A stretch of 63,428 nucleotides of DNA, the filler included, from Folioceros fuciformis (taxonomy: Eukaryota), in assembly GCA_049999805.1 (NCBI GenBank). It is 12 parts of 12 records of this genome, joined end to end, with 100 filler letters (N's around TTAATTAATTAA, not from the genome) between each part and the next. Parts side by side here need not be neighbours in the genome. Positions count along the whole stretch, not along the records: positions 27,854 to 37,525 come from JBNGIO010004999.1; 11 more parts are not named here. One strand, given 5' to 3'. The notes beneath the pieces are model-generated. The model saw only the letters and a program-made list of their open reading frames with translations, searched no databases and was not told the DNA's origin. Position 1 is the stretch's first letter. Every line of letters starts with the position of its first letter. Positions 12,258 through 53,315 of this stretch are shown here, in pieces. The position numbers were made by a program, and so were the translations under genes.

Positions 12258-12259
12258 AG

Positions 12260-12270
12260 TGGTATCAGAG
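12260..12270 (+). promoter_or_regulatory. Primer-binding site for initiator tRNA-Met
   Basis: TGGTATCAGAG, 2 nt after the LTR end. Confidence 0.92.
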
Positions 12271-15209: not shown

Positions 15210-15309
15210 NNNNNNNNNNNNNNNNNNNNNNNNNNNNNNNNNNNNNNNNNNNNTTAATTAATTAANNNNNNNNNNNNNNNNNNNNNNNNNNNNNNNNNNN
15301 NNNNNNNNN

Positions 15310-20399: not shown

Positions 20400-21338
20400 T
20401 GAAGGATCCCTTGAGGAGCCCCATGGTGAAGGAGGAGAGAAGAAAGAGAGGACACACTCTCACAAATGTCTCACATTGCAAGGGAGCTCAAGGGGGTCTA
20501 TATACCCTCTAGAAGATCCCCCTAGGAAGCTTCACAAGAAGCGCACTGGAAGCTCCGCAAGAAGCTTCCTATATATTAGCTTAAGCTAATCTAAACTAAT
20601 GATGCTTAATTAGACACTAATCTTAGACTAAACACATTGGTATAAGCACATTGGGCTTTAATAACCCTACAACCTCCCTCTTAAAGGCCAATTTACCTTC
20701 ATAGGAGAGTGGTCTACCTTATGCCCATGAGTGTCTGAGCTTGTTCGAATTACTCCGAATCGAGTCCCTTGGTAAGAACATCTACAGGGTTCTGATTGGT
20801 GTGAACTTTGACAAGCTGTACCCTCTTGTCTTCCAACACCTCTCGAATGAAGTGATACTTCACTTCCACATGTCTGGTCTTCGCATGAAACACTGGATTC
20901 TTCCCAAATGGGATAGCACTCTAGCTATCACAATGCAAAACTAGTAGCTCAACCTTGATCCCCAAATCTCCCACTAAACGAGAAAGCTACATGGCTTCCT
21001 AGCACGCCTCAGTTGCTACAACATACTTGGCCTCTATAGTAGATAGCATTTTGCACGATTACAAACAAGATCGCCATGAGACTGCACCTCCAGTGCGCAT
21101 GAAGACATAACATGATGTGGACCTCCTTTTGTCCATATTCCCTACATAATCAGCATTCATATATTCCACTACAGATGCATCTTCACTACCAAAACATAAG
21201 CACAAGGCTTTTGTACCATTCAAGTACCTCATAACTCCTTTCACTACCTCCCAATGCTTCCTCCCAGGGTTTGACATAAACCTGCTAACCACTCCCATTG
21301 CAAAGGCAATGTCAGGACGCGTAGCAATCATTGCATAC
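20400..21338 (-). mobile_element. Copia 3' end: RNase H remnant, PPT (20672-20681) and 3' LTR (20400-20671); same family as 7719-15209
   Basis: Minus strand reads YAMIATRPDIAF...RRSTS, then AGAGGGAGGT-TGTAGGGTTATTAAAGCCCAA, matching the LTR start at 11976. Confidence 0.92.
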
Positions 21339-22960
21339 CCGACCCAGCAGCCGACAACCCAGCAGATTGGGCTGTAGGCAGCCAACAACGGCAGGGGATG
21401 GCGTGCGGCCAGGTAGCGAGCAGAGTCATCAGGGGCCGTGGCCGTGGAAAATGCAAAGTAGGCCTTTGGCAGGTGGCCGGATCTAGGCAAGCAAGGGGTT
21501 GCGCATCCAGGTTGGAGTAAGCGAATCGAACCCAGACAGGCCATGGCGGTTGAGCAGGGGGTCGAGTCACAGCGATCTTGCGATCTGCTGGCCGAGACGG
21601 AGCCAGGTAGGGGCTGGCTGGCAGGCACGTCCTCCTTGCTAGTCGGATCTAGCTAGCCCAAAGCTAGCCAAGCAGCGCTTGTTGCAGCCTATAGGTGAAT
21701 CTGCTGGCTAGCTGCCTGGCCAGATCCAAGAGGGTAGGCTGGCCTGGCAGGCGGCCTGGAGGGTGGTTGGGCCAGCGGCGGCCCGACTGTGTGACCAGTG
21801 GGGATGGCCGGCTGGATGCGGCTGCGGGCGGCCGAACTAGTCGTGACTGCAGGCACGCAACCAGCAGGCAGCCTAGTAGCGGCCTAGCTGGTGAGAAGCA
21901 GGCTGGCTGGCAAGAGGCCGGTAGGCGATCCTATTGGCGGATTCGACTAGGCAGCCGCCTAGTGCTGGCCGGCTGGCTGGAGGAGATCCTAGCCGGCAGG
22001 GCGAGGAGCAGGGGGTGCTGCCAAAGCAGGTACCCACTTGGCGGCTGGCGGCTGGCTTAGTGGGATCTGGGGCCAGCCAAGCGGGCTACAGGCAGGTAGT
22101 CGGGTAGGCCAAACGGGTGGCTACCCTGCAAGGGTCGAAGACAGGGCACCCCAGGCCCGATGGGCAGCCTACGATGGAGACCAGACTGGCGGGATCGCCA
22201 GATGACGGCAGCTGGCAGCAGTGGCTAAGGCGGCTAGCCAGCGGGCTTAGGTGGCCCCCTGGCTGGAACAGGTGGCAGGCGGCCGGTAGCAGGCAAGGCT
22301 GGGGGGACGATGGATCTTGCAGCCAGGCCGACTAGCTAGACCATGGGCAGTCGGCGGGCTAGCTGGATCATCGCCAAAGCAGCTGGGCTGCAGGTAGGCG
22401 CGGCCACCGGGCCAGCTGCGGAGGAGGCTGGAGTGGACTTAGGTAGGATCCGGGCTGGATCCAAGTAGGCGGCGGGGCTAGACCTGGACCAGGACCAGGC
22501 GGGGTGCAGGCGAATCTTGGTAGGTAGGAGGCAAGCTAGGCGGTCCAGTCATCTAGGCGGACCAGAGGTGGGCGTTGGCCATATTGCTAGGCAGCCAACG
22601 GGCGGACCAGTAGCAGGCTAGTGGGCAGTCAGATGGTAGGCAGGTCCGGTGCTGGCTGGATCACGGTTGGTAGATCAGTTGGGGGGGCAGGAAGCTGCTC
22701 TTGCGACCCTGGTGGAAGCTTTGGTGGAATCAGGGGCCAAAGCCGGGCCGAGGTCCTGGCTGGATCCAGCGGGCAAGGTGGCCGTGGGGCAAAAGGGGGG
22801 AAGACGGATCGCCAGGTGGGTGCAGGCAAGCACCTAGGACTGGCTGCAGGTGACGGGATCCGGTAGGGGCAGGCTGGCCAGTCAACTCTGGTTGCCTCGT
22901 TAGCTGGACAGCTTAGGAAGGCAGGCCGGCTGGCTACAAGATCCCAAATAGGCTGGTGTG
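21338..22960. repeat. G-rich GC mosaic repeat
   Basis: Same motif vocabulary as 1-1211; abrupt junction with the copia fragment. Confidence 0.6.
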
Positions 22961-27753: not shown

Positions 27754-29802
27754 NNNNNNNNNNNNNNNNNNNNNNNNNNNNNNNNNNNNNNNNNNNNTTA
27801 ATTAATTAANNNNNNNNNNNNNNNNNNNNNNNNNNNNNNNNNNNNNNNNNNNNGTGTAGAAGTGATGCAAGCATCTCCTACCGCGATGGTGTGGGAGGAC
27901 AGAGCTTCGGAGGCGAGAAAGTCAGTTGAGGCGGTGGTCCAGTCTGCAATGGGGATCTTGGAGTCGGATCAGCCCAAATCGTTGCTGATCTCTCTCAAGG
28001 TTCAGAAGGACAACTCCGCCTCGGCGTCAAGTGCAGGCTAGGAGAGGGAGGAGAGCGTCCTGATGGCTGGCAACGACCACATGTTGGGTGATCACAAGAT
28101 TCTTGGGGTGGTTGTTGAAGGTAGTGATGATCCGTTGAGGCGGCCTTGTGGTGCGGCAGGAGGTCGTTAGTTGGTCCTGGGAGAGGTGGGTGCGTGGCCA
28201 GCTCTCAATAATGGAAGTGTCTAGGTTGTGTTTGTCCAAGAGGGCGAAGCAAACTCGGATGCTGGGGTGCCCGCTACTTGCCTGAAAACACCTTCTGTAT
28301 CAGCTCCTTGGAAAGCTGTCGTGGTCTGTCAGGAGGAGAATTCTGCAGATGTGCTCACAGTAGGTCCTGAGGAGATGGGTAGGCAGTTTGAAGGCTGTCG
28401 GGATGAGCTAGCAGCAAAGAGGTGGGACGCTCAGGCAAAGGGCAGATGGGCGTCGCCGAATGTGGGGAACAGGTCGGGATTTTCGTCCGTGGAGAACGTC
28501 TTGGCTCAGGACGGGAAGTCCCAACATACTGGTTCCCTGATAATGGGTTTTGGTTTCCCATCCTTGCAATTTGATGGGGAGGAGGAAGAAGTGTCGATGG
28601 TGCCGCCTGATTGGGATCCTAACATTGAGGAAGGATGGGGTAGCTTGGTGAACGTTCCAGGTGTGCGGCAGTATGATTTTGCTCCAGGGACATTAGACAA
28701 CCGCAATCCCCAAGATCGAGACTGTCGAGGTTCTCTGAAGGTGGGGGATTCGAGGTATGGGGAGGCGCTGCATGTACCTCCTACTGTGCTGAATGGGAAG
28801 GATGAGGTGTATGTGGAGAACGGTGCCGCCGGGCTGGGGACCCAACGTGCCGACAGACCCCGAGGCCAGGAGGCGGCTCTGGATCCTCTAAAGGCGAATG
28901 TGCAGGTCGGGTCTTCCTCACCCCTGGACAAGTTTCAAGCTCGGGAGGCGGTCTGCCTGTTGCCCTGCGACTCGCACCGTGAGAGAATTCTAGCAAGCTT
29001 TGAGGCAGATGCTGATGCTCGTGAGGTGGCGAAAGATGGGCGGATTGCGCTGCTGAGTGTGGTTGGGCTGGCCAGGGAGAGACGGGTGAAAAGGTGGTTT
29101 CCAACGGTGGAGTCTGCCAGGTAGGAGACTCACAGGGTGGGAAGGTGAGTTTGGTGGCTTACCTCCCCACCGCCGGCAAGAAGGCGCCCTCTGATTCCGG
29201 GCTTGGGGCTGCCAATGTGGGTCGCCTAGTGGAGGATTTCGCTTATGAGCAACTGGCGGCTTCTACGGCAATGCTCTATGATGGGATGGCTCCTGCGGGC
29301 TCGATCCAGGGGACAAATTCTATCCCTTCCTCTCAAGCAGTCGGTGAAGAAGTGGGAAGGGAGTCTTCCACGGTGCTTCATGGGCCTTAGCTTCTCGTTT
29401 CTCCGCGGGGGGTCCCAACACCACACAACCTGTCTGCTCCGGGCCATCAGTCTCCCGGGCTTGGAGGGGGCCTTGGTCCTGCTGGAACAGTTGAGTCAAG
29501 GGCAGTATCGGCTGGAAATTCCACTGCCTGGAACACTGTGGATACATCTGTCTTGATCACAGGCAAACAAAGGAACTTGGAGGTGGCAGTAGGGAAGAGG
29601 ACTCGTGTTTTGGAAGATCTGTCATCAGGTCTTAAACGGATCTGTCATCTGGCCAAAGCAAGGAAGGCGCTAAACAAAGTCGTTCAACGCAAGATTAAGT
29701 TACTGGAAGTGCAAAAGGGTGGCAATAGGTTTCATGGGAAGACCTCTGCTGGCGTGGGGAACGACTTTGTCGCAGTGCGTGGTCTACGCAGATATGGAGC
29801 GA

Positions 29803-29946
29803 GGGAACCTGTTCTGCGCGTCGCGGAAAAACCTTGGTGGGAACCTGTTCTGCGCGTCTCGGAAAAACCTTGGTGGGAACCTGTTCTGCGCGTCTCGGAA
29901 AAACCTTGGTGGGAACCTGTTCTGCGCGTCTTGGAAAAACCTTGGT
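29803..29946. repeat. 4 x 36-bp in-frame tandem repeat (EPVLRVSEKPWW)
   Basis: Unit GGGAACCTGTTCTGCGCGTCTCGGAAAAACCTTGGT. Confidence 0.95.
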
Positions 29947-30085
29947 GGACTGTGCCAGCCCCACAAAACGGGCTAGCCCCACCATGAGAGATAATGAGAG
30001 AATGTGATAATGAGAGATATGTGCTAAGGACGATGAGGATACTGAGATTGTCTGGCATGAAGTGCAAGCCGTCTTTTTCGGGGAC

Positions 30086-30549
30086 GAAGGTAGCACCTCC
30101 CCGCTAAATTCCTTGGAAGAGGACCCAATGAAGGTATCACGAAGGTAGCACCTCCCCGCTAAATTCCTTGGAAGAGAATCCAATGAAGGTAGCACCTCCC
30201 CGCTAAATTCCTTGGAAGAGGACCCAATGAAGGTAGCACAAAGGAGAACCGGACCCAATGAAGGTAGCACGAAGGAGAACCCAATGAAGGTAGCACCTCC
30301 CCGCTAAATTCCTTGGAAGAGGACCCAATGAAGGTAGCACCCAATGAAGGTAGCACGAAGGTAGCACCTTCCTGCTAAATTCCTTGGAAGAGGACCCAAT
30401 GAAGGTAGCACCTCCCCGTTAAATTCCTTGGAAGAGGACCCAATGAAGGTAGCACCCAATGAAGGTAGCACCTCCCCGCTAAATTCCTTGGAAGAGGACC
30501 CAATGAAGGTAGCACCTTCCCGCTAAATTCCTTCGAAGAGGACCCAATG
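30086..30549. repeat. About 8 x 44-bp repeats with interspersed partial units
   Basis: Unit GAAGGTAGCACCTCCCCGCTAAATTCCTTGGAAGAGGACCCAAT. Confidence 0.92.
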
Positions 30550-33500
30550 CAGGTTAAGGAGGCGTAGGATGAGTATCCTCCACAGGGCAGAAGGTTGATC
30601 ACCACATTTGGTGATCAACCTGATGGTTATGAGAAAGGTGCAAGATTTTTATTCTTTTCTGGTTATGATAGGAGGTGGGGGGAGCAGCTACCCCTTGTCA
30701 TTACACTGCACCATTTGCATGGAGGGTAAGAAAGAATATTTGAATACTTGTTTGCCAGAGGGGTTCCTGTCGGCAAGGAGGGAAAAGAGGAGGAATTCTT
30801 CAGTGGTATATACTAGAAGGATGGTCAACTTTTTGCTGACATCCGGCTAAAACAAGTTTATAGACCCAATATGCCACTTATCCCGGAGTGGAGGTGGTCC
30901 TTGGACGTGCCTTGAGCAAAAGACTGGATATGGAGTCCAGACATGGCAGTGGGTGATGTCGAGGGGCTCTTGGATGGTCAGGGCAGGAGGAAAGCTCCCG
31001 CTGTTTGCAAATATAAAAGGCTTCAAAGATTATCCCTTGAGCTCAAAGCAAAGGATCATCTTGCGTGGCCCAAGTCAGTGTCGGGGGCTAGGATGCCCAA
31101 GCCCTCTGCTGTAAGGAATCTCTCAAGCAAGTCCCGCTAAATGGGTATCGACACTTTGAAGAACTATGAGAGGGGGTCTCACCTGCGGATCATTTCCTGG
31201 AATGTTAGGGGTCTGGGGGGTTGGTCGAAGACGGCGTCGAAGTGTAAACGAATAAAGAATCTACTAGAAGAGGAAGTCACGTGGGATGTTGTGTGCTTGC
31301 AAGAGCATAAACTATCTCTTGAGGAAATCCAGAGAGTGAAGATCTTTCTTCCTGGTCGAATAGAATGGGCAGCAGCTAAGCAGAGGATACAAGAGATGGA
31401 GAAAGGTCTTCTTAACGAGTTTTGGCGACCCGCGGAGGCGTGTCCATTACAATTCACCCAGAGCAAACTCACAACATCTTGGAATCGGGGCAAGATGAGG
31501 AGGGGAGGTTTGTGTGGTTGGTGCTGCAAACTCCTCAAGGCCCAGTTGGAATCTGCAATATTTACTCGCCCAATTCGCCATTGACAGGAGTATCCTTTGG
31601 TGTAGGCTGGGGATCAGCTTGATGAGCAAATCCCATGGATGCTGGCTGGCGACTTCAACTTTGTTGAACGCCGTGAGGACATTCGAGGGGATAGCCCAGT
31701 AGATATACGGGCGGTGCCTATGTCTTGGTAGGAGTTGAGAGACACGGTCCTTGCTGTGCAGGATCCTTGGGTGGCCCTCCCGGCTCATCGCCAACCATAG
31801 TCCTTGATGTTCAACTGGTCCAATCAACAATAGAATTTGGGAGTGCACAGGTTGAACAAGTTCTATTTACCTTCAGAGTGGTTGGCCTTCGTACAGTCAT
31901 ACAATATTCTCGCTGGTACGATCCTTTCTGACCACCACCCCATTAGCTTGCACTTGAGGCTTGCTCCGGAGGTTGAGCACCCAAGGAGGCATATGAAAAA
32001 ATTTCGGATGTACACATCTTTACTGAAGGAGAAAGGTGTCTTTGAAGATATCAAAAACATCTGGCAGGGAGTTGAACAAGGGGGAGAAAATGCGGCGGTC
32101 AAACTGATGTGTGCTACTAACGAGGCGACTAGGTATTTGAGGAGGCTAGGGGTTCAACGAGAACGAGAACAACGCCAGCAAGAACGTTTTTTGAGGGAGG
32201 ATCAGTGGTGGCTACAGAGGAGCTACGAGGGTTGGGAGCTCGCAAGTGCGGAAGAGGCCAGGAAAACGAAGGTGCAGAGCGCTTTGGCCAAGTTGGAAGA
32301 AGACAGGGCCAGAGGTTGGTTTAAGCGGGCCAAAGTCAAGTGGGTGAGGGAGGGGGATGGCCCCTCTAAGTTCTTTTTCAATAAGGTGGCCTCTAATCGA
32401 CATAGAACGCGAATTCCTGCCCTCCCAGACGCACGAGGCGTGGTGCAAGAATCACTCAAAGGTTTAAAAACTCTTATTACCCTCTTCTTTGTTGGCATAT
32501 TCTCCAGCGTTGGGAAGGCGGCAGGGTGGGAACGGTTTTGGTCTTCTTCTTATGGCATGCTTTTGGCTGAAGTGTCTGATGACCAGTGCAGGGCTCTGTA
32601 TAAGCCGATAACCGCTGACGAGTTGCTCCAGGCCCTGAAGGAGATGCCGAGGGATAAATCCCCGGGACATGATGGTATCCCTCCCGAGTTCCTGCTTTGG
32701 GGGTGGGAATTTATGCAGCCGTTATTCATGGAAGCGGTTAGTATGTTTTGGGAAGAAGGTAGCATGGGGAGCTGGTTCAATATGGGGGTTATCTCCCTGC
32801 TCCCTAAGCAAGATGCTAGCTTATCAATCTCCAATTGGCGCTCGATTACCTTGCTCACTACCACGTACAAGGTGATTGCTAAGGTACAGGCTAACCGAAT
32901 TACACCCTTCCTTGATGATTGGATTGAGAAAGAGCAGCGAGGGTTAATTCAAAATAGATGCATCCTAGACAACCTACTAATCCTGATGAAAGCTAAGTAC
33001 AACACTCAAGTACAGAAGAAAGCCGCCGTTTTCATTTCCCTTGACTTTTACAAGGCTTATAATTCTGTTGAATGGCATTTCCTGTGGCGAAGCCTACGTA
33101 GCTTCGGGTTTGGGAATAATTTCCGCAGATGGATAGCCATTTTGAGCGAAGATGTAGGAGCCCAGGTGGATGTTAATGGGTCTTTTACGGAACGCTTTGG
33201 CATCTCTTGGTCGGTACGTCATGGTGGCCCCCTTGCTCCATTCTTATTTATCATCGTCACTGACTTCTTTCTCAACGTAGTCAAGCAAGACCCGGCAGTG
33301 GTGGGTATTTGGAACCCAGACGGAACGTAGCAGGTCAAGGTCTTGGTGAACTATCAGGCTGCAAGGTGAATTGGAGTAAGACGCGCATGATGTGTCTTCA
33401 CTTGGATGGGGAGCCTCCTCAGTGTATCAATCACATTAGGCGAGTGACTCAAGGTTCTACCCACAAGTATTTGGGGCTTCCGTTCCAAGAGGGGGATGAG

Positions 33501-36500
33501 AATGGGGAGATTGGGAAGTACGTCTGCCTTAGGTTCATTCGCAAAGTGGCTAGTCTTCAATTTTTGGAGCTCAATCTGGCAGGTAGGTTGGTGGTAATTA
33601 ATCATATCCTTACTGCCTCTTTATAGTATTATCTGTTTTTATGGGCCCCTTCCAAGTTAGAGGTGAAACGCTTAAAACAGGTGTTGACCTCTTTCCTGTG
33701 GAAGCGTTCGGGAGATAATATGGCTGGGTGCTCTAAAGTGGCTTGGCAGCATATTATTCAGGCATGTGGTTTGGGGGTCTCAAGGTGGTGGACCTGGTTG
33801 CCAAGATGAAAGTGTTGCATGCTCAATGGGTTGTCAGGGCAGCTGATTCGACTTTCTATCCTTGGAAGAGCCTTTTAAACACAGCATCTGGACTGCACCC
33901 AAGCTGTCCCTAGGGTAAGGAGATCCATGGACAATATTTTGGCTGACAAACCGATACTCGATACTGCAGAATGCTCCCCACTTTTCAAGTCCATCTGGAG
34001 TAGTTACTTGGAGGTTAAACAATATCTTATCCCGAGTGACTTTTCTTGTGCGGATGATGTTCTTGGTATTCCTTTGTAGGGGTTCTCGAGGTTGTGGGTG
34101 CAGGAGTTCATGCCAAGGGTATATCGATCACAAATTTTTGGGTTGGCTTGTCGAAGAGGCGTTATCCAACTTGGTCATTTATGGAATTGATCAGAGGCTC
34201 GTTGGAAGGAGATAGAGGAGGTCAAAGGGGAGTTTGGTTTAGGGGCCCGGTACGTCAGACTCATTTTCTTGTGGTTGCACGAGGGGCTTGAGGAAAAGGT
34301 GCAACAGTTCTTAAGGCAACAACCTACCATAGGAGGTGAAGGGTGGTATGCATTCTTCATGGATAGTAGGGAAGTCTATTCGGAGGAGGAGGAGGATCAG
34401 GTGGAAGCATTAGAATTAGATTAGGCGGTATGGCTTGCGAGATCGGAGGGCAAAGAGACGCTGAAGTCGTTCAAGGTCATGTCGCTTGATGGATTTTTGG
34501 AAGAGTAGGGCAGGGATGACGGGGAAGCTTGAGAGGGGAATTACGGGGTATCAATGTCCTCGTTAAGTCTGTTCAGGCAAGGCGATGGTGCACCCCAGAC
34601 GAACTCCCAATTGGGCCACAAACCTCATAAAGCAAAGGTTCAGTGCTGGTTTCCACTAGGCGAGAATTGGGCCCTGACCTTCAGACCAGATCTCTACAAG
34701 TGGCCCACGCGTCCAGGGTGCAAGAAGGCTACCCCTCGATCTTTCTTCAACTTCCCAACGGCGGACTTGTTCCTTGGGTTGGTGTGAGCACAAAAAATCA
34801 AGCAAAGACAACCGATGGCTCCCCGATTGCAATTAGTTGGACGGCGACAAAGAGAAGCCAGCAAACTTCTATGGAAGTCCGTAGGAATCTCCCCCAAGGT
34901 CAAGTCTACGATATGGTATTTTTTTCAAGCGTGTTTGCCTAATGTGAATCGTTGGGATGGGCTTTTAGCTGTAACGAGGGAGGATGTGTGTCGGTTGTGC
35001 GCAGCTGGGGCCCCAAACAAGAGTCCACACATGGTCTATCATTGCAGCTTTGCCCAAGAGATATAAAGGGAGGTAGGCAGGTGGCTCCGTTTGATTTTTC
35101 ATGGTGCTAACCTCAAGATCACGACACAATCAACCTTATTTGGGCTAGACGCAACCTCGGATGAACCTCTCCTTAAAACACAATGGTGGGGCTTACTGTG
35201 GTCTTCTTGCCTTTTTCATCTCTGGGTCAATTGGTTCGTGGTGGTCTATGGAGGACAGGAATCAGCTTCATCGAAAGCTTTGTTGTGGCGCATATGGGAG
35301 CATTCGTTGATTGCAGCAGAAGCTTTGGAGCAATCCTGTTGGAAACAATTTAAGCGGAAAGACAGGAGGAGGGCGGGATTCCTAGCGCCTGGGAAAGATA
35401 CATGTTGGAATCATTCGTGCCCCTCGGGACGGTGAGCCTTAAGATCCTTGGGGGACCCCGAGGTGTGAGTGTAATTGGCTTTGGCAGTTCGTGGGTACCA
35501 TAGTGTAGGGTACCATAGTGTAGGGGATCGCTTTCTGAGCGCCTTGTCTTGAGTTTTGGACTTAAGGCCAGTTCTCCCCTCGCTTCTGGTGCTTGATTTT
35601 TGTACATACGTTAGTAGGATTCTTCCCTTGTATTGTAGTGGAACGCATCTACCAATTATAATCTGAATTTTTTTCGCAAAAAAAAAATAATGCAGCTTGT
35701 TTAACCTTGTCCCTATATAATGCGAACCATATGTATTTCTTGCTCGAGAAACGAAATAGAATGAGCCTGCATTTTTGTTTAAGAAAAAAAATCATTAAAG
35801 TATATTTAAAATAAAATAAAATTCATTTAATTGAAATAAATAGAGTTTATATATTGTAACATAGTTGGGAGGGTGAGTCTAGGTGTTGAGAAACATAATC
35901 CTATTGTAGACATATGCCTACATTTATACAAAATATGTACAAGTCTTCTCTTCTGCCCAGGCTGTTGAGGAAACAGCCTGTGGCGAGGGCACTCGCTCCC
36001 ACGGTATCAACCCTAAAGTGCACGTACTGTACTGGAAGCTTCCGTAAGGTGCAGGTGGATGCAGGACGCTGGATCTGGCCCCGCCATCTGCCGGCGACAG
36101 AGGGCTGAAAGTTCTCTTGCCTGTTGGGGCTGGAAGTACAGACATGCAAGATGAAAGGCTGGAAGGCGAAGACCAGGTAAGTGTGCACAGGCTGTGTTTA
36201 TCACCGTAACGCTGTAGAAACTGGATTGTGAGACAATTAGCCATCATCCGAAGAACGATTTGGCAAACAGAGCAGGGAACAGAGGGTGAAGAAGGGCGAA
36301 GCTTGGGCATATTCTCCTGCCATGCTCCTGTAGCGGCTACTTGATTCTCATCTCCGTGATCTCTCTTATGGCCGGCCACAGGAAGGGAGGCAACACATGG
36401 CGCACATTTGCTCCTCGATTGGATGATTAAAAGCTATGCCTGTGCATGTGCTACAGCTGATGCCGTAGCAAAGGTAATCAGTTAACACAAGTAGTGAGCT

Positions 36501-36926
36501 ACCCCTCGATTTCGTATGGTGTCACTGTGACTTGAAGGCAGAAGCTCCACATACGAGTTCACTGAGGTACCAAGCTTCGGCTGGTCGGGATGATGAAAGA
36601 TACAGCCTAACAGTGTGCAAGTGATGTGACAGCCACAAGGCCGCAAATCTGGATCACTTGCCTGTGAAAACGAAGAGCCGCAGCTGTACGTGTACAAGCG
36701 CGCACCTTCGTCCCTCCCTACGCATAGCCTCCATGGACCATCATCTGTTCATCCCCATCACGACGCTGTGAGAGGTCTCTATTGCCAAACAGGAAAGAAT
36801 GCAAGGCAAGGGAGAAGTAGCAAAATCCATCAGAAGCAGCATTAAATACACCAACAACATGTAGCTGAAGAGCATGCCTGACACTTGGTTGAAGGCATTA
36901 CAGGCCCTGGCCACATACTTCTCTCT

Positions 36927-37525
36927 CTAGCCCGGCATGACAGGAGCCTGGGGTGGCCGAGACCAATATCGCTTTTTGGTAAGTGTGCTGCGCAAATCAG
37001 GACACTGATCGATCTTCTCATAGTCCCCACCTTTGGTTTCGTGTTGGACCTCCATGCCCGTGACCTTGCCAATCACGCTGGTCATGATGCTCAAGACATC
37101 TGCTATTTCAGAGCCCTCGTTGATGGCTTCCATCAAAACTATGATGAAGTTTGTGCCTTCGTCGGCATATCTCAAAGATGCATCTCCAGGACTGGTGGAG
37201 AAAACGGTTAGGAGGTCTTTAACAGAATACAATGGTCGAACTCTGTTGCTCACAACTTGGCTTCCATCAACGGCTGACACCTGGACTTTGCTGCTGGTTG
37301 CATGGATGGCGGTGCTTTACCCCTGCGATTTCGTGCTGCTGACAAGGGTGCCAGTGCCTCGACATATATTTATGATAATTACCTTGAGTTTGTCTGCCAA
37401 AAGCGTGCATTCAGCGATGGGTTTCAAAATATCATCTTCGACATATAGCTTCCCGGCCTTGTCTTTTACACCTAAGCAAACGTACTGCCTTCCGTTTTCA
37501 TCAGTCCCACCATGGGCGTTGATGC
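36927..37525 (-). pseudogene. Animal-type caspase (peptidase C14A-like): C-terminal part of p20, linker and complete p10; 5' end lost in gap; one in-frame TAA at 37317-37319 (pseudogene status uncertain)
   Basis: Manual translation: INAHGGTDENGRQYVCLGVKDKAGKLYVEDDILKPIAECTLLADKLKVIIINICRGTGTLVSSTKSQG*STAIHATSSKVQVSAVDGSQVVSNRVRPLYSVKDLLTVFSTSPGDASLRYADEGTNFIIVLMEAINEGSEIADVLSIMTSVIGKVTGMEVQHETKGGDYEKIDQCPDLRSTLTKKRYWSRPPQAPVMPG*. His codon at 37512-37514, Cys codon at 37362-37364. Confidence 0.88.
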
Positions 37526-37625
37526 NNNNNNNNNNNNNNNNNNNNNNNNNNNNNNNNNNNNNNNNNNNNTTAATTAATTAANNNNNNNNNNNNNNNNNNN
37601 NNNNNNNNNNNNNNNNNNNNNNNNN

Positions 37626-40600
37626 GTCTGGCCTGGGCTGGGCTGGGCTGGGCTGTCCTGTCCCTAAACGCGCGGCGGAAGTGGAGGCGAATGAGGCAGA
37701 CCGGGCAAAGAGAGAAGTGAAGGGCAAGGGTGTTAACACAAGGTGCGGCAAAGGGAGAAAAAGGGAAAACAAGGAGAGAGTGGCAATCCCGGAGTGGATA
37801 AGGAAGGATCCTGGATAGCGGATACCGCCTGGCGCCCTGGCGTACCCAACAGAGCGCTGAGAGAGTTCCGACGCGCTGCTGCCTGGAAGTTGGAAGGCCA
37901 GGGAGGCCGAGGCGGAGGGCGTAACAAGTCATGACATAACCTGGAGACTGGAGGCTATGTGAGACTGTGAGTGAAGAGGCAGGCAGGGGGGCAGAGGCAG
38001 GTGCAGAGGGCAGAGAGTGTAGTAGCGCTGGCGGCTACTGTGCGATGCTGTCGCAGTCCAGAGTGTGTGCACCCAGTCCATGTCCGCATCAAGGTCCGGG
38101 TGTGGGTTGCCGTTGGCCCCACCTCCTCATATCAGCCAGCATCCTCATGAAAGCTGAGCGGCGTGAGCCTGGGCCGTGGCCATGTGTCCTTTGCACAACC
38201 CTAAAGGCTAAAGGTTCTCCCTCCCTCGCTCCCTCCCTCCCTCCCACTTTTACTTCGTGCTGCGTGCACTGGTCGTGGCACGCCTAGTTGTTAACCCCAG
38301 GCTGGTCAACTAGGTTGAGGCCTGCCTCCCTCCCAGGGCCAGGCTGATGAGGCTCCGGCTAGGAAGCCAGTGGGGCGGGGCAAGGCGGGGTAGTCGTAGT
38401 CCAGGGCCGAGCCTTGTCCGTGTCCCCTCCTCCCAGCCAGCGCAGAGCAGAGCTCAGAGCAGCTCAGCGCTGCGCAATCAAGGCGCAGTTCGCCTTCAAA
38501 AATCCCAGCTGTGGATCACCTGCGCCGCTACGACCGCATTTACAGCCTGGTATGCACCGTTACCATATGTATATATTATGTACATATGTACAAAGCAAAA
38601 GCTGAAGCTGCAGTTGCAGAAGCAGAAGCAAGCACCACCACCACCACAAACAAAACAGTGCAGGGAGCAGCGTGCAGCGTGCAGTGTGCAGCGTGTAGTG
38701 TGCACTCCAGGTCCAGGTCCAGTCTAGTCCAGTCCAGTGCAGTGCACTTGCAGTTCATCGCATCCCAGTGGCAGGATCCCCATCGAGCATCGCATCGCCG
38801 CCCTTTACGCTAAACACTACCACTTCCCCTATATACATGGTATGTATGTATGTATGTATGTATGTATGTATGTATGTATGTATGTATGTATGTATGTATG
38901 TATGTATGTATGTAGAGATAGTCGCATGTGCATGAAAGTGAGTACACAACAGTACAGTACTGTACTGTACATAATTACGCAAGCAAGCATGTATGTACAT
39001 ACTTACATATGGTCTGTATGTATGTACATATGCAGTAAGAGTAGACCCGCGTGGGAGCCGTTCCGGGCCTCGCCCTCATGTGCGCGTGGGGCCAACCGCG
39101 CTACACCACACTTACCCCCCACCCCACCCCGTCGCATGGACTGTGGACGGGGTCAAACACTCCAGCTCGGGCCCCACCCCTTTTCTATTTCAAGTGCAAC
39201 TCACAACCAGCGCAAACTCGAAAGCTCAACCAGCAACAGCAGCAGCAGCAGCAAGCAGAAGCATTTGGTAGCGTTCTACTCTCCTCCACCTCCCGGAGAA
39301 TCTTTCCCAGCTCCCACTTGGAGCCACTCGGACTACCCCCTTCCCCGTCCCCGTCCCAGTCCCAGACCCAGTCCCCGTCCCCGTCCCCGTCCCAGTCCCA
39401 ATCCCAATCCCGCGTTCCATCATCTCCATTTCCTTCACGCTTCCTCCAGCTCTCAGCTTACAACGTACCGACCTACCTGCATAGTGCCTCATCCAACATG
39501 CTCTACACAGTAGTAGCTTAGCTTTACCACCTACTACCTACGTGTCTAACTAATCTATTATATTGTGTTATCTAGCAGAGTATGCCACACAGCCAGCGGA
39601 GGATGTCTCATACATTTTCGCTGCTGCATTGTTGTTGCTTGCTTAATCCCGGAGATGTTGCAAGCCATTTGAACACACATCAACAAAGCTAGGGCATGAA
39701 CGAGTACAGTATGTAAGCAGGTAAATCCGAGGGCACTCGCACTCGCACTCGCACCCACAGCCACCAACCACCCAGGCGTTTAGGTCACCCTTGAAGGAGA
39801 GAAAAAGACAAAAACAAGGGTTGCGGAAAGGTGGCAGCTTGAAGTTTGGAGAGTGGGGCGAGGGGTCTGGTGGGCATTGAATGACGGTGCCGCGCGCGCG
39901 ACCTGACTGCTGACTGCTGACTGGGCGCCGGTGCGGCAAATGTGGCGGGTCCACGTGGGACGGGAGCCCCATCCCGCACCCGTACGGCGCGCTTCGTTGT
40001 CATGTGCATCAGGCTCTCTCATCAGTTATCTGTACCCGGTCCACAACTCTTACAAGTGTAACCGGGAAGGAGAAAGGGTAGCAGGTTGCCCCACGGCTAG
40101 TTACCTTAGCCTAGGGTAGCACACCACACTGTACCACTACTACCTACGGTGCACTACACCCCTGTACTACCCCCCTCCCCCATCCCAGGGTGGCCCGACT
40201 TAATGCGGTCACGCCATAGGCCCAGTGCCTATCCGGTCTGNNNNNNNNNNNNNNNNNNNNNNNNNNNNNNNNNNNNNNNNNNNNTTAATTAATTAANNNN
40301 NNNNNNNNNNNNNNNNNNNNNNNNNNNNNNNNNNNNNNNNCCTGCTATTCCCTATTTTTGTTTTGCGACAACACCCATCCTGTTTGCATACACATGGATG
40401 TACTTCCCAACGTTGTCCAGGTTCCACCCTTTTCGTTTCGTTTCGTTTCGGTGCGCTTCGGTTCGGTTTGTTTCGTTTTCTTTCTTTTTATCTTCTTTTC
40501 TTTTCTTTCCGCATGTTTCCGATTATTTTTGTTTTATCTTGCTGACTCGTTTCCTCAACTCCGCTCTACCACATCATCCTTTTGTCTTTTTCTCATTCCC

Positions 40601-41299
40601 CAGGATCTTGCCTCTCTCTCTCTCTCTCTCTCCACGCATCGCTACTACGTCTGTATGTACTTGCCACTGCAATCCACCAGAACTTGGTACAGTATTTGAA
40701 TTCCAATCTCCCATGCACTGTCCCCACAGGCTATCTTCTACCACATATCTAACTCCCCGACCAAGACAGGCCGGGGCCCCTTCCCCTAAACAACACCGCA
40801 CGGCACTGCACCGCACCCCACTCCCTGCTCCTTAGGGACTGGGGAGGAGTCAGAGTGATAAGCTGTTTGGTGGGCTGGAGCTTTGGAGCTTTGGAGCTTT
40901 GGAGCTTTGGAGCTTTGGAGCTTTGGAGCTTTGGAGCTTTGGAGCTCGGAGCTTGGAGCTAGAGCTGGCGATGGTGGTCCCGCCTCGCATTGCCTCTGCC
41001 TCTGCCTTCGCCTCCGGCCGTGCGGAAGGGCTCTCCTGGCCCTACGCCTGTCCACTCCAGCCCAGCGTGCCTGCCCTGCCCTGCCCTGCCCCTGCCCCTG
41101 CCCCTGCCCGCCGCCACGGACACCCAGCCCGGAAAAGCGGAGCACACAAAGCAACGCCCAAACAGCAACGGGCCACGGACTCCGTTCCCATGCACACTAC
41201 ACTGCACAGTGGTGCACCAACTTATATTCCTTCCCTCTTGTCCGCTCTCCACTGCCCTCTTCGTGCGCAAGAGCAAAAACATCAAACAGACGAGGAAAG

Positions 41300-41353
<54 letters not shown>

Positions 41354-43762
41354 TTGTTGCCCGTGCTCTATTACATAATACTGCCATCTTATCCTCACTC
41401 AAGTTAAGCGCTGGGCTCAGCGGCTTTAAAGTTTTTTTGTTTTGTGCGCGCCAAAAACAGGCCTGGGTACAAAAGCGTTGCCCCCTCCGTGCCCAGGCTC
41501 CCTTCCCTGACGTGCTCCTACGTGGAAAGTCAGTGGCTCGAAGTTTGATCGCCTTGGCTGTGCCTTCACCTTTGCATTTATGACGACTCATCGCCACAAG
41601 CACAGCCAGCGTGCACTGCACCCACAGCCGTGCCCTGCCCCATCTCCATGGACTTGCATGTACAGTACATTGTATTGAGCTGTGCACCTCGGAACGGAAC
41701 AGAACGTAAAGTAATGGAACGGGACGTGACGTGATGTAGCGCAAAGTAACGGGAAAGGAAAGGAAAGGAAAGGAATGCAAAGGAAACCAAGGATTCCAGT
41801 CCTGTCGGGTAATGTTGAAGAAACGGGATAGGGGCTTGTGCTAAGTTTAGCAATTTATTGGGTGGAGCACGAATTTTGGGAGTTTCGGTCCGACACTGCT
41901 CTTGCAGGAGAGTGAGGCGAGGAGATGACATGAGAGAAGGCTAGATCTTCCGAGAGGAGAGGAGGTGGAGCTTCCCGGTGGCGGTCTAGCAGTGGACCAA
42001 TCTCCCATCTTAACGAAACAAAACCAAATCAAACCAAACCAAACAAAACCACAACGCCAGCAAATGGCAACGCACTGCACCCTCGTCTCTGTCGCCCCTG
42101 CCCCGGCCACTGTCCCCATCTATTTTCGGCAAACGCAAAGGGCAGGTCACGGCAGAGCAGAGCACAGCAGAACAAGGAGAGGAAAAAAAAAAAAAAAACA
42201 GAGAGGACGGGAGGCCCCTGCCTGGACCGCGGCCCCCGGCATCGCTACCTTTGCATTTTGCGGTTCGGGGTTCGCGGTTTCCAAATTGCATTGCGCGTGC
42301 CCGACCACACCTTCTCCCGCCGCTATGCCACCTCATTAATGTCGCTAGCTTGTCTTCCAAGATATTCCCTCCAATCTTATTTCTTTTCCTTTTCTTCCTC
42401 TGGGTTCTGGGTTCCCGGCTCCGGGCTCTGGGCTCCGGGCTTCCCCCCACCACCCCCAAAAGCTTCTTCCACGCCCCCCATTTCTTTTCCCTATTCAATC
42501 CACGTACGTACTCGCCCACATGCCCCCTTCTTCTCCATCCATTATTCGCCGGCACTGCCACAGCCAGCGCCTTAGCCTCTGCCTCTGCCCCGTTCTACGC
42601 CGGCCCCGCCTCTCTCAAGTCAAACTCTGACCTTGTCCATCCCTGAATGCGTCGCCCATCACTATGAGCAACATGGATGTACACACGTACTGTGGTGTAG
42701 TCTGTGCAAAATCCTGCATGCGCAAAGCACATAAAGAGCCAATCTACCACCCACCTAATATCCACTGCATTAACTGCACAAATGCAAGCGAACGCATTTC
42801 CATCCTTCTTCCTACTGCTGCTACTGCAAGGCAAGGCAAGGCAAGCTACATGATAACGTACATATGTCGATTGTGAGTGATGGTGCGAGTGCGTTCGGTA
42901 ACGGAACGCCGTGGACACACGCTTCCCGAGCGCAGGAACAGCATCGCGTTAACTTGGGAAGACAACCGGAGAGCGCGCACCGTCCCACGAGACGCAAGAC
43001 CCTCATCATTTCCCCCGCCCCGCAAAACAAAAAAACTTTCCTCCACCGGGGCCGGGGCCGGGCCGGGCCGAGATGGGGCCCCCGAGTTGCTAAACCTGCC
43101 ATCACCCAGACCTGCTCCTTGAGCTCTCCTGGACTGGACGGCACGGGACGGCACGGGAAAGGATGCCACGGGACCCGACCTTACAATTGCACCGCGGCAA
43201 GCAACCTACCCAGCATCAACCTGGGCGTGCCCAAAAACAAAGGCAAAGTGGGAGCAATGCATATGGTATTCGATACAATCGTCACCACGGGCACTCGCCA
43301 CTCTTGAGCTGCAGCCACTGCATGCCGGATCCGCATATCTCTCATTACATGTATGTATGTTCATTGTACCCCTGTTTAAGATACTTTTTGTAGCAGTACT
43401 GGTACTGCACTGCTGCTGCCGACTCGGAGCTGTAAACCTGGGCCTAAAGTGCAAAAATGCGCAGCATAAAGGACAGGAGACAGCAGCCTGGACCAGGCCG
43501 GTTCCGGACGTGGAGTCCCTGGAGACCCAGGGGCGGCCCAGGCCGGGCCCCTTTGCCTTGCACGCGCACCCCACCTTTGTTTTCTTCTTGTCAACTGGGC
43601 TTGAAATTTTCACGGAGGCAGCAGACGAAGACGCAGATGCAGCAGCAGCCAACAGCCAGCGGCCAGCAGGATGTTGGGCGACGACACACTTGCTTCAGCG
43701 ACTGGGCCTGGACCTGATGAACTTGGACCGGGACCTGGACCTGGACCTGCGCCAGAGCCAGG

Positions 43763-43793
<31 letters not shown>

Positions 43794-44100
43794 CGAGGCC
43801 AGCGCCAGCGCCAACGCCACGGCCAAGGCCAGGGCCAGCGCCAGCGCCAACGCGGCAACAGGCTACGGGATTTTGTTCCTGCCCGGAAATCTCCCCCCTC
43901 CTCCCTTCGTTGGTGGAGGGGCCCCAGCTGTACAGTTGTACCGGGGGAAGGAGGCGTTTGCACATCAGCTTGGGCGTCAGCGGCTGCCTATCTTTGGATG
44001 GCAGGGAGGCCAGGGCGCCCCCTGCCCCGCGGGCCCCGGCCCGACTCGGCCCCACCGTCCACGGATTCCGTTTCCCCCGCAACGGCCGCAAACTCGCTGC
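37626..44100. repeat. Microsatellite-dense non-coding region
   Basis: (TATG)n about 38841-38912; (CCCCGT/CCCAGT)n 39343-39410; (GTTTC)n 40433-40476; (CT)n 40612-40632; (GGAGCTTT)n 40878-40945; (CCTGCT)n 41300-41353; (GGAAA)n 41752-41774; (CCAGAG)n 43763-43792. Confidence 0.9.
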
Positions 44101-50400: not shown

Positions 50401-51413
50401 TCCTAAAGACTAAAAACTAGTATATTAAGCCGCAATGCCAATGAGCCAAGCTGGATACACACATAACTGGCTGGTGCAAGAGCAGTCTTGGTGTAAGCTT
50501 GGGATGCTCCAAAATCGTTGTTTGACATCATTACAATGAGAAAAGAGGAAAAACACAAGAGCACACGCTCAATGCTCATATGAGAGGGACTCAACTGGGA
50601 GGGGAATGAATCTTTCAACAAGCTTGCTCCAGCGCTATCCGCCCTGTAAAATGGAGCTTAAATGTTCTCAATAGGGCGAGGAAAGCTCGAACTCCCACAT
50701 GATTTGAATTAGCACTTACAACTAGGAGGACGTTTTATGCGGGGTAAAGAAAATCCCCACCTCAAGCTCGTGCTTCTTCCCTGAATGTCGTTGCCACGAA
50801 CAGTCTTCGCTCAGAGGGACCTCTGTGTGGCCATACATAACGTAGCCCGGCTATTCGGCGTGGCATGTCTCAACATACATGGGAACATTGTCTATGGCTG
50901 GAATCGCAATTCGGACGACTACAGATGTACATTGTACATAGGTGGGCGGTTCCTAATGGACGGTGGTATACAGTTGAGGCGGGCCCGGGAGTGGCGATGC
51001 GGGAATACATGTCGCTTATCGGTGTCATAGGCGGCTACAGATTCCAATTTCCCAGCACCGTCTACACTACTCGCGATTTGTCAGCATCAGGTTTGTTGTA
51101 GTGCGCGGTGCATCACGCACCTGCGGTGTGGTGGGTGGTTCATGGGGTAGCAGATCCGTGCTGCACAGCGCGACATTCCTCGTGCTGCTGGCCTGGATTT
51201 TGAGAATTGAAGTTGGATGATCGTGCGCTTAGAGACTCACTGTACCTTGCAGTGGGGCGGTTTATTGAATGCTCACCACCGTCTGAAATTTTAACTCCTC
51301 AGGTGCGAAGCTCCTCGGGGTGAAACTAGCAGTGAAGCTGTGCCAGGAGGGTCAAGAAGGGAGAGCTACTTTTCGGGATCCGGCTAGCTGGATCGCTTTG
51401 GTTCCTCGCCAAC

Positions 51414-53315
51414 ATGGCAAGCATGGGGTTGTTACGGTCGGCTGGCAATGAGGATGAGGACAGGGGTGGTAGACGGCATCGCCGTAGATTGAGGTTCGAT
51501 GGCACCGCTGGTGAGGTTGAGCAGCAGGTTGGGTGCAGCGATGCTAGAGTCAGGAGTCTTTTCGTGACGGAAAGGCGGGCTCCTCTGTGTCTTGTCCTGA
51601 GGGCGTCACGGAAGCAGCGCTCTAGGTATCACGTTCTCTGGCCAGGTTACCAGCATGCCCAAAACTTCTCTCTTGAGCTTGCGGCGCTGGGCAGGGCAGC
51701 AAAACATGTTTTGGACAATGTAAGACCTCAGACTGTGGGGGTGATGTGCGCAACTGGAGCGTCCTTTGCGTGCAAATGCGGCTTGATTTTGTTTCTGAGT
51801 GTGTTTCTCGACAAGTCCTGGCCTGTTCTACAGATTTCTAGTGTTTGTACTCTATTTCTGGAGCCCGTCAGATCGTTTCTTCCAAACGCGATAAGGATTG
51901 CTCTGCAACCAGTGAAGGCTTTGATGAGACCGGTTTTTGGGTTGATGTTGTCACGACCTTTATTGTGCCTGGCGTGGCCTGATGCTTATAGGACTGCTAG
52001 GTTTTGGCGTCGTCTCCTTCCCATTTATTTTGCATATATTAGAACCAAGCAGAGTGTAAGATGGAAGAGTGCAGAGGAAAGGGAGAAGATATGGGCCAGG
52101 AGGCATGATTGGGGTGGGGTGAAGGTGCATCAGCTGGTTTTGGACATGAGTGGTTTTTATGTGAAGTCCGCTCAGATTCTTGCTAGCAAGGCTGATTTTG
52201 TACCCAAGGCCTGGATCAAACATCTGTCTAAGCATTTTGATGATCAGCCGCCTCGTCCATTTTCAGAAGTTGCACTCAGTGTGAGGCAACAGCTGGTGAG
52301 ATGTGAGCGTGGACCGTCTCTGCCTCTGGATGCCAAGGGTCTTGTTCCATTAAATTCGGTGTTCTTACACCTTGAACCAACTCCTTTAGCATCAGCCTCA
52401 ATTGCTCAGGTTCATGGAGCTATTCTGAATGACGGTACAAGGGTTGTGGTGAAGGTGCAACACCTAGGAATGGAAACTTACATGCATTCAGATCTCCGCA
52501 ACATTGCCTGGGTGGCAAAGTTTCTGCGGGGCCAACTTCCCTTCGATCTCACTGGTGTGGTGAAGGAGATACAACAAACTATACCTCTGGAATTTGACTT
52601 CCAGCGAGAGGTGTGGTTTATGACACGGATCAAGGAGAACTTACACAGTAATGGCTTTCAGCACATTGCTTGCCCGTCCCCGATCGAGTATCTGTGCACC
52701 AAGCGTCTCATTGTGATGGACAGGATTGATGGTGTTCCTTTTACACGCGTCTTGCACTGTGGAACTGAAGAGAGGGGCAGGTCCGATGAGTTGGTGCCTC
52801 TGGTAGAGCAGCTGCTGCACGCCTACGGCCAGATGTTGCTTGTGGATGGCATTTTCCATGCTGATCCGCATGCAGGTAATTTACTCCTCCTTCCGGATGG
52901 AAGACTTGGACTCCTTGACTTTGGTCAAAGCAAAATTATTGACAGAGACACTCGACTACTCGTAGCCCGCATGGTGCTTGCTCTGGCAGATGGATCTGAA
53001 ACAGAAATCGCCAGTGCTCTCATCCAGACGGGTATGGTTTTTCAAGATGTTCGGGGGTTCCCCATGTCGGAGTGCACGTTAGCTGTGATGGCTCGGATTT
53101 TATTTGACACTTGTTATGTAGAGGAGGCTACAGTGTCCCCCATGTCGGACGACTCTATTTTACGCACCTTTCCTCTCACCTCATTCAATCAGTCATTCTG
53201 GATGGTCATCCGAACGATTGTTCTTTTGCGAGGGTTGTGCTATGAGCTGAACATGAACGTCTCAGCAGCTGCCGTTTGGCGTCCGTTTGCTGCCGCCCAG
53301 CTTGTGACACATTAA
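51414..53315 (+). CDS. ABC1/UbiB/COQ8-family atypical protein kinase (ABC1K), single open frame, 633 aa
   Basis: GFYVKSAQILAS, PLASASIAQVH, VVVKVQH, LEFDFQRE, FHADPHAGN, LLDFG. Confidence 0.93.
   Translation: MASMGLLRSAGNEDEDRGGRRHRRRLRFDGTAGEVEQQVGCSDARVRSLFVTERRAPLCLVLRASRKQRSRYHVLWPGYQHAQNFSLELAALGRAAKHVLDNVRPQTVGVMCATGASFACKCGLILFLSVFLDKSWPVLQISSVCTLFLEPVRSFLPNAIRIALQPVKALMRPVFGLMLSRPLLCLAWPDAYRTARFWRRLLPIYFAYIRTKQSVRWKSAEEREKIWARRHDWGGVKVHQLVLDMSGFYVKSAQILASKADFVPKAWIKHLSKHFDDQPPRPFSEVALSVRQQLVRCERGPSLPLDAKGLVPLNSVFLHLEPTPLASASIAQVHGAILNDGTRVVVKVQHLGMETYMHSDLRNIAWVAKFLRGQLPFDLTGVVKEIQQTIPLEFDFQREVWFMTRIKENLHSNGFQHIACPSPIEYLCTKRLIVMDRIDGVPFTRVLHCGTEERGRSDELVPLVEQLLHAYGQMLLVDGIFHADPHAGNLLLLPDGRLGLLDFGQSKIIDRDTRLLVARMVLALADGSETEIASALIQTGMVFQDVRGFPMSECTLAVMARILFDTCYVEEATVSPMSDDSILRTFPLTSFNQSFWMVIRTIVLLRGLCYELNMNVSAAAVWRPFAAAQLVTH

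Follow-up and report, generated by a model that had tools for sequence, protein, structure and literature searches.

Is a true caspase encoded in the nuclear DNA of a land plant? The question is raised by a minus-strand frame at 36927-37523 of a 63,428-nucleotide stretch of the Folioceros fuciformis assembly GCA_049999805.1 (hereafter the window, to which all coordinates refer), which the initial annotation had read as an animal-type caspase and not a metacaspase. Plants are stated to lack caspases and to use metacaspases instead in reviews and current papers, one example being a 2025 abstract (PMC12521494). Our literature searches found no account of such genes in plants, hornworts included, with the limit that supplementary tables might list such a family under Peptidase_C14; in PMC11218826 and PMC10952240, "caspase" refers to CARD domains and to animal or bacterial NLRs, and neither "caspase" nor "peptidase" occurs in the main text of PMC7027989. 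We find that, with a probability of about 0.72, the frame holds the C-terminal two-thirds of a gene for a caspase-type cysteine protease (MEROPS C14A-like) in land-plant nuclear DNA and is a decaying paralogue in a multi-copy clade.

A caspase-type frame at the end of an unplaced contig

The window is a chain of unplaced contigs, in which twelve N44-TTAATTAATTAA-N44 linkers join separate contigs, and the caspase gene occupies the right-hand end of one of them (27854-37525; Table 1) and runs off the contig end. The break at 37526, which had been taken for a sequencing gap, is one of these linkers. The frame translates to 198 positions with a single in-frame TAA at 37317-37319, and carries, in the order originally described, NAHG, CTLLADKLKVIIINICRG, KDLLTVFSTSPGDASLRYADEGTNFI, DVLSIMTSVIGKV and QCPDLRSTLTKKRYW, with the putative catalytic His at residue 4 and Cys at residue 54. 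This dyad spacing of 50 may be set beside spacings of 42 in caspase-3 and 48 in caspase-1. The p20-like motifs of the window copy are N-A-H-G and ...K-L-K-V-I-I-I-N-I-C-R-G, followed by a linker of ~46 residues, and the p10-like motifs are D-L-L-T-V-F-S-T-S-P-G-D-A-S-L-R...G-T-N-F-I, D-V-L-S-I-M-T and Q-C-P-D-L-R-S-T-L-T-K-K-R-Y-W. The list of open reading frames (ORFs) splits this sequence into 37317-37577 and 36927-37316 and shows the p10 half only, as had been remarked, because the TAA lies within the linker.

The pentapeptide N-I-C-R-G is a variant of the Q-A-C-x-G type, with Asn for Gln and Ile for Ala, and the Asn that the initial annotation had pointed out proves to be common to 19 of 22 clade relatives. 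Similarly, the p10 Arg of S-L-R, proposed there as the equivalent of the caspase S1 Arg, aligns with the Arg of S-[WY]-R in caspase-3 and caspase-7 (phmmer against the PDB). For the three pocket residues we assume the caspase-1 numbering R341, Q283 and R179.

The frame matches Pfam Peptidase_C14 at an E value of 2.4e-13 (50.8 bits against a cut-off of 21.4), and is therefore far beyond chance. Searching all PDB sequences with phmmer gave 110 matches at E<=1, the best 60 of which are all caspases, including the caspase-3/6/7 ancestor, caspase-7, caspase-3, Sf-caspase-1 and CED-3. When 1.84 billion representatives were searched with HMMER, 49 proteins were recovered at E<=0.001, the best of them 38-42% identical to the window protein; all 49 carry caspase-type motifs, and the His, Cys-Arg-Gly, S-x-R and G-[ST]-x-F columns align. 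A profile of the 13 closest proteins matches caspase-7, -6, -8 and -3 in the PDB at E ~1e-35 with the whole domain covered, and the Arg of its R-x-G-x-x-x-D pairs with that of caspase-7 V-R-N-G-T-D, so that the p20 S1 Arg is present in the relatives. The catalytic columns (His, Cys, Arg and Gly) are common to the window copy and to 27-28 of 28 caspase rows outside the clade, and 21 of 22 clade rows, like all 28 others, have the p10 S1 Arg (S-x-R). Atlas feature neighbours of one relative, P0009, are caspase clusters. The window protein had no match among the NCBIfam and PADLOC models, which cover bacterial C14 and defence proteases, or in a word-indexed protein search.

Structure comparisons likewise favour the caspases. 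An AlphaFold model of the window fragment (a partial domain, pLDDT 83.9) was compared with 48,161 PDB representatives, and the three caspase chains come first: 4jj7_A (Z 13.0, 26% identity), 4pry_A (Z 12.9, 28%) and caspase-9 (1jxq_A; Z 12.8, 23%), with root-mean-square deviations of 2.1-3.1 A over 135-142 aligned residues and the usual order of p20 and p10 elements. These are followed by the MALT1 paracaspase (Z 11.5, 19%), the protease-like domain of c-FLIP (Z 10.4, 18%), the metacaspases AtMC4 (Z 9.2, 10%) and AtMC9 (Z 9.1, 8%), legumain/asparaginyl ligase (Z 9.0-9.2, 14-15%), and the metacaspases Yca1 (Z 6.2, 12%) and TbMCA2 (Z 4.7, 12%). With a model of the closest full-length relative (P0002), every Foldseek row listed up to rank 50 is a caspase entry.

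A distinct clade that includes hornwort transcripts

We looked up the source organism for 30 of the 49 HMMER matches and obtained a name for 10: the hornwort Nothoceros aenigmaticus (EukProt EP00246) accounts for two, both transcripts, and the other eight are from animals (Anabrus, Mytilus, Diadema, Ladona, Periplaneta, Medioppia, Littorina and Sergentomyia). A profile search added eleven proteins (P0056-P0066), among them a third Nothoceros ORF of 412 amino acids that is marked complete. A quick tree of 61 rows put the window copy within a 24-row clade (Shimodaira-Hasegawa-like approximate likelihood ratio test, SH-aLRT, 99), and a careful IQ-TREE reconstruction of 55 rows put it within a 21-row clade with support of 100/100 and a stem of 0.83. 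This clade consists of the window copy, three Nothoceros rows and 17 rows that lack an organism name; the eight named animals are all outside it. The careful tree omitted three long branches (P0011, P0036 and P0048), two short fragments (P0006 and P0033) and a duplicate (P0066), and P0051-P0055, members of clusters already represented, were omitted from both trees; the trees are unrooted, carry no C14B outgroup, and have backbone supports of 58-82.

The clade has a signature that the window copy shares: A-H-G, Asn before x-C-R-G, V-F-S-T, G-T and a C-terminal Y-W. Of the 40 positions at least 80% conserved in the clade, 33 are retained in the window copy, including the His, the Cys, the Arg-Gly and the p10 Arg. 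Judged from these alignments, the clade is multi-copy, fast-diverging and distinct from all animal caspases sampled, in keeping with the hidden lineage-specific family that had been suspected at the outset, and a separate caspase clade with Asn in its pocket would, we believe, be new for a land plant.

Several members of the clade have features of their own. P0002, P0016, P0059 and P0063 share an N-terminal extension of ~100-180 residues with a conserved block of the form ...I-R-x-[LV]-C-A...L-x-E-A-[IV]-I-R-P-x-C... (model pLDDT 36-78); the extension matched no Pfam family even at E 10 and gave no usable Atlas match, and no CARD, DED or other Pfam prodomain was found. In the p20 part of the Nothoceros proteins P0004 and P0059, the His and K-P-K strands are separated by a long, highly charged insert of ~70-80 residues, rich in Glu, Lys and Arg, that is absent from the other clade members. 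P0016 has S-G-H-G in place of the Cys-Arg-Gly site and is apparently a natural pseudo-protease.

Scans limited to a pattern, based on an alignment of the closer relatives (A2), found no relative in GTDB prokaryote genomes and no viral relative in IMG/VR, both of which are weak evidence. The same kind of scan in metagenomes returned 11 loci, of which the four inspected (L001, L002, L005 and L011) are animal-like caspase pieces, three of them split, and are neither clade members nor outgroups. L002, L005 and L011 are intron-split, with [ST]-H-G, Q-A-C-Q-G or Q-V-C-R, and G-S-W-F, and are unrelated to the plant clade.

The family represents either a striking inter-kingdom gene transfer or a deep gene retention. 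The possibility that a processed, intron-less animal caspase transcript was transferred horizontally into the plant lineage and then multiplied, as opposed to an ancient eukaryotic gene having been lost elsewhere, is a tentative one, to which we give somewhat less than even odds. A processed origin would agree with a domain that is intron-less over 198 codons, with multiple, diverged copies, with named clade members from a hornwort only, and with the placement of the clade among animal rows when the tree is drawn from its midpoint; that placement, however, comes from a tree without an outgroup and with the backbone supports given above, the long stem and low identity point to no donor, and no poly(A) remnant was found downstream in the DNA.

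The window copy is probably a decaying paralogue

Whatever the origin of the family, its representative in the window is damaged. An uninterrupted coding sequence for the whole domain is not present: the frame contains the TAA, the N-terminal third would lie beyond the contig end, and Leu replaces the Pro of K-P-K that 21 of 21 clade rows and 28 of 28 others have. It deviates from the clade at 7 of the 40 conserved columns. Three public runs (X1, X2 and X3) come from two studies and bear one organism label; X2 and X3 are DNA runs and may be the assembly's own data, X1 is from an independent study, and 0.51-0.62 of the sampled words of 35800-37525 are present in the three. The TAA is real, because it is crossed by one contig of X1 (record 7, 273 letters) and one of X3 (record 23, 274 letters), both of which match the window exactly. 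A TAA followed by A is a strong terminator, and a p20-only product would be unable to form an active site, as the p10 half supplies the S1 Arg.

The runs also contain sister copies. At position 37138, another letter is read in four, five and seven distinct contigs of X1, X2 and X3, respectively, and several related copies therefore exist. Several diverged contigs lie on the caspase region (one, for example, differs at 25 of 320 letters and another at 32 of 388), and a loose end in X2 extends the frame upstream of 37520 with the family motif D-C-F...C-L-N-A-H-G, so that at least one copy reaches further 5'. At 36464-36465, all contigs of the three runs read letters other than those of the window, and at 37138 and 37161 all contigs except a minority contig of X2 do so; reading the codons by eye, the changes at the latter two positions would replace Val by Ala, which is nearer to the family consensus, and Asp by Glu. 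These differences suggest that the window copy is a minority variant or has assembly errors. Given the damage to its frame, the window copy was probably disabled recently and is now a decaying paralogue within a live family.

That the window copy is instead a working gene, with its TAA read through or spliced out (GT at 37319-37320 and in-phase AG acceptors 27-78 nucleotides downstream), is unlikely. The frame stays open for 129 codons past the TAA with nearly all family-conserved p10 residues kept, yet the invariant Pro has also been lost and the stop stands in its strong context. By eye, GGTAAAG (cut after its first G) makes a good donor with several in-phase AGs behind it, whereas the candidate introns have no pyrimidine tract and would be very short, and the exact contigs of X1 and X3 run unspliced through the segment, with no joint reported there. 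Relatives with short linkers do exist (P0009, for example), but the unspliced linker of the window copy is the same length as that of another relative, P0003, and no intron is therefore needed to explain the TAA segment; we have set this intron aside.

As to joints elsewhere, 36744>36878 skips 133 nucleotides with GC..AG ends on the gene strand, was seen in X1 only and is absent from the DNA runs X2 and X3; a second, diverged X1 contig has a loose end that matches it, and we regard it as a weak hint of a spliced 3' region. The joint 37157>37340 was rejected as splicing, since it is non-canonical, also occurs in the DNA runs and is anchored by only 23 letters at one end. The lack of X1 cover over 34488-36013 was not counted as evidence.

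Probable plant origin of the contig

The assembly is that of a plant, as seen from a Plant_U3 small nucleolar RNA (snoRNA), a DYW domain, an ABC1 kinase and Ty1/copia pieces in the window; the snoRNA is full-length (Rfam RF01847, 127 bits, E 1.7e-33; 53440-53660, minus strand). The caspase contig itself carries an L1 retroelement of plant type, broken into several frames, with matches in order to Exo_endo_phos (E 0.0038, below the Pfam cut-off), RVT_1 (E 6.3e-23) and zf-RVT (E 2e-6); among 30 relatives of its reverse transcriptase, 11 have an organism name and all 11 are angiosperms. The DNA runs X2 and X3 cover all 30 bins of 31000-37525, with a summed depth of 131-930 on the L1 against ~11.5 on the unique spacer at 35796-36013, and both the spacer and the caspase region have exact contigs from the public runs. 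The GC content at third codon positions (GC3) is 0.55 in the caspase frame, 0.52 in the ABC1 kinase and 0.50 in the DYW domain. A GC content of ~0.5 agrees with the value for hornwort reads in the Anthoceros angustus genome paper (PMC7027989). The contig is thus very probably of plant nuclear origin, and the early judgement that the gene belongs to a plant assembly, with no obvious sign of contamination by an animal, is upheld by the L1 on the same contig, the Plant_U3 snoRNA and the runs of two studies.

It is quite unlikely that the contig comes from an animal or other eukaryote on or in the plant, either as contamination or as a constant associate, and not from the plant nucleus. Although the contig is short and unplaced and has no sequence in common with the other contigs (blastn and tblastn searches of the remaining window found no shared repeat and no second caspase locus), it bears a zf-RVT-containing L1 of plant type that is highly repeated in DNA runs of the same organism label. 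This type of domain is otherwise known from animals, which make up eight of the ten named matches; the 21-row clade, in contrast, has no named animal and does have a second land plant inside it. The metagenome scan yielded intron-bearing animal-like caspase genes, and such DNA is thus common in environmental samples, but those loci are split whereas the window frame runs for 198 codons without an intron, its GC3 matches that of the plant genes, and the stretch is present in two studies.

Several points weigh against reading the locus as a decaying member of a plant caspase family. The contig is unplaced, is only 9.7 kb and shares no repeat with other window contigs, no single read or contig of the runs was seen to bridge the L1 and the caspase, and depth was gauged on the contig's own L1 and spacer and not against a single-copy plant gene, so that a constant associate is conceivable. 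None of the three runs is on record as RNA, which bears on expression. The window copy is only 36-42% identical to any relative, 17 of the clade rows come from assemblies or metagenomes without an organism name, the Nothoceros rows are contigs of a transcriptome, in which foreign RNA may be present, and the unrooted tree does not decide whether the clade lies inside or beside the animal caspases. Finally, the p20 S1 Arg of the window copy would lie beyond the contig end, the Asn in place of Gln in the pocket could alter P1 specificity, and MALT1 is only 1.5 Z units under the caspases on the partial model.

The remaining alternative, a divergent metacaspase, paracaspase or orthocaspase of the Arg/Lys-specific C14B type, can draw on the breadth of Pfam PF00656 (which takes in all four groups alike), on the matches of the partial model to MALT1 and AtMC4 and on the known presence of metacaspases in plants, but is highly improbable, because none of the 60 PDB matches listed in either sequence search is a metacaspase or paracaspase, all 49 library matches bear caspase-type motifs, the bacterial-family models did not match, the p10 pocket position is Arg as in caspases, the Cys context is N-I-C-R-G and not the D-x-C-H-S-G of metacaspases, and identity in structure alignments is 8-12% to metacaspases against 23-28% to caspases. 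We have accordingly rejected a metacaspase or orthocaspase identity and regard a paracaspase identity as unlikely on sequence grounds; the initial assignment to the caspase type is borne out by Pfam, by the PDB and library searches, by Foldseek and by the structure scores.

Features of the contig and its neighbours

The features of the caspase contig are collected in Table 1.

Table 1. Coordinates of the caspase gene and other features of its contig
Feature	Position	Strand	Details
Contig with the gene	27854..37525	.	Unplaced, 9672 bp, GC 0.50, N44-TTAATTAATTAA-N44 linkers on both sides
Tandem repeat arrays (36-nt, 44/115-nt units)	29803..30554	.	Upstream of the L1, same contig
Degenerate plant-type L1 (non-long terminal repeat) retroelement	31141..35435	+	Runs towards the caspase gene (convergent); pieces of Exo_endo_phos, RVT_1 and zf-RVT spread over several frames
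Probable 3' untranslated region	36014..36926	-	Contigs of run X1 on these bins; hint only, X1 not on record as RNA
Possible 133-nt GC..AG intron, 3' region	36745..36877	-	Joint 36744>36878 in one X1 contig
Terminal TAG stop codon	36927..36929	-	Frame end
Remaining linker and small-subunit (p10-like) part	36930..37316	-	S-L-R with S1 Arg codon 37170-37172, then G-T-N-F-I, Q-C-P, L-T-K-K-R-Y-W
In-frame TAA inside the inter-subunit linker	37317..37319	-	Spanned without difference by contigs of two studies
Large-subunit (p20-like) part, cut at the contig end	37320..37523	-	His codon 37512-37514 (N-A-H-G), Cys codon 37362-37364 (N-I-C-R-G)

The tandem arrays consist of a 36-nucleotide unit in 4.1 copies and of 44- and 115-nucleotide units in 2-4.5 copies, and lie between the L1 and an open frame of 299 codons (28225-29124) that has no Pfam match.

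On other contigs, an uninterrupted 659-codon frame at 51336-53315 (plus strand) encodes the ABC1 atypical kinase domain (E 4.6e-49) and is apparently intron-less over this span; the Plant_U3 snoRNA is directly downstream of it on the same 18-kb contig. The DYW-family deaminase domain (E 1.1e-6; 61332-61748, minus strand) runs into a contig end and is a piece of a plant-type pentatricopeptide repeat (PPR) editing factor. Many pieces of Ty1/copia-type gag, integrase and reverse transcriptase are scattered across several small contigs, at 1256-2245, 3397-4764, 7627-15257, 21059-21652 and 58844-59723, with a repeated Y-A-M-I-A-T-R-P-D-I-A unit at 9875-10336, within the reverse transcriptase region. 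Neighbouring GC-rich contigs contain long ATGT/TACA-type and GC-rich trinucleotide or dipeptide-coding microsatellites (38800-38930 and 40900-44100), and the contig at 1-1211 has a GC content of 0.66, well over that of the rest of the window.

Predicted mechanism and significance

From the conserved residues, we predict an Asp/Glu-directed caspase mechanism for the family. Its members would be cytosolic single-chain zymogens, in which a catalytic dyad in the p20-like part (His in A-H-G, Cys in N-A-C-R-G) would be followed by a variable, often acidic linker of about 25 to 45 residues and then by the p10-like part. The S1 pocket would be made of an upstream Arg (R-x-G-x-x-x-D), the Asn that replaces the caspase Gln, and the p10 Arg (S-x-R), and because such an Arg-Asn-Arg pocket would be basic, it would be fitted to Asp or Glu at P1. 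Activation could proceed by cleavage of the linker, by dimerisation or by both, and the N-terminal extension of P0002, P0016, P0059 and P0063 may serve recruitment. The broader proposal, that hornworts and the source plant carry an expanded, diversifying family of true caspases with this pocket and with cleavage after acidic P1 residues, whether inherited from an early eukaryote or acquired from an animal, seems to us evenly balanced. Many diverged copies and low identity would fit a conflict-driven role in immunity or cell death, which is a conjecture.

A caspase-type family in a land-plant genome and in transcripts of a second plant would qualify the statement that plants have no caspases. 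If the proposal is true, the rule that plants have metacaspases only would fail for one or more lineages of land plants, and real caspases could underlie some of the "caspase-like" (DEVDase/YVADase) biology that still lacks an explanation, or a death or immune pathway specific to the lineage. The family would also offer a natural non-animal caspase clade in which to study the evolution of the S1 pocket and of activation, and opens, in a transformable plant group, the question of its substrates and of roles in cell death, immunity or symbiosis.

Comparison with known systems

Plant metacaspases (AtMC4 and AtMC9; MEROPS C14B) share with the window protein the clan CD fold, the His/Cys dyad and a plant host. 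They differ from it in their Cys context, in their distance (Z 9.1-9.2, 8-10% identity), in their absence from the 60 rows listed per sequence search, and in their S1 pocket, which is acidic for Arg/Lys whereas the window protein has Arg. The MALT1 paracaspase has a caspase-like domain and is the second-best structural class, but its identity is 19% and it is not among the sequence matches listed; MALT1 is Arg-specific and has Glu where caspases and the window protein have Arg.

A caspase-family gene that persists with inactivating changes has parallels in the protease-like domain of c-FLIP (Z 10.4) and in the stop allele of human caspase-12. The window copy differs from these in that it keeps both His and Cys and is interrupted by a stop, and the likeness implies no regulatory role.

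Animal effector and initiator caspases (caspase-3, -6, -7, -8 and -9 and CED-3; MEROPS C14A) are the best match both by sequence (family profile E ~1e-35) and by structure (Z ~13). The fold and the order of elements are the same, as are the His in x-H-G, the Cys in x-x-C-R-G, the K-P-K-[IVL]-F-F-I before the Cys (in relatives of the window copy), the Arg of S-x-R, G-[ST]-x-F, and the C-terminal Q-x-P...L-T-K-x-L-Y-[FW]. The clade differs in having Asn for Gln before the Cys (19 of 22 rows), A-H-G for [ST]-H-G, V-F-S-T, G-T and Y-W, in an identity of only 22-30%, and in its plant host, and the window copy differs further in being truncated and carrying a stop.

The nearest named sequences are the unannotated Nothoceros aenigmaticus transcripts (EP00246; P009469, P000030 and TRINITY_DN2499_c1_g1_i9.p1), which fall in the same 100/100 clade, share its signature residues and come closest to the window copy in identity (39% over 166 columns). 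Whereas the window copy is broken, these transcripts contain intact ORFs, one of them marked complete at 412 amino acids; their proteins are extended at the N terminus, and some also have a long acidic insert within the p20 part.

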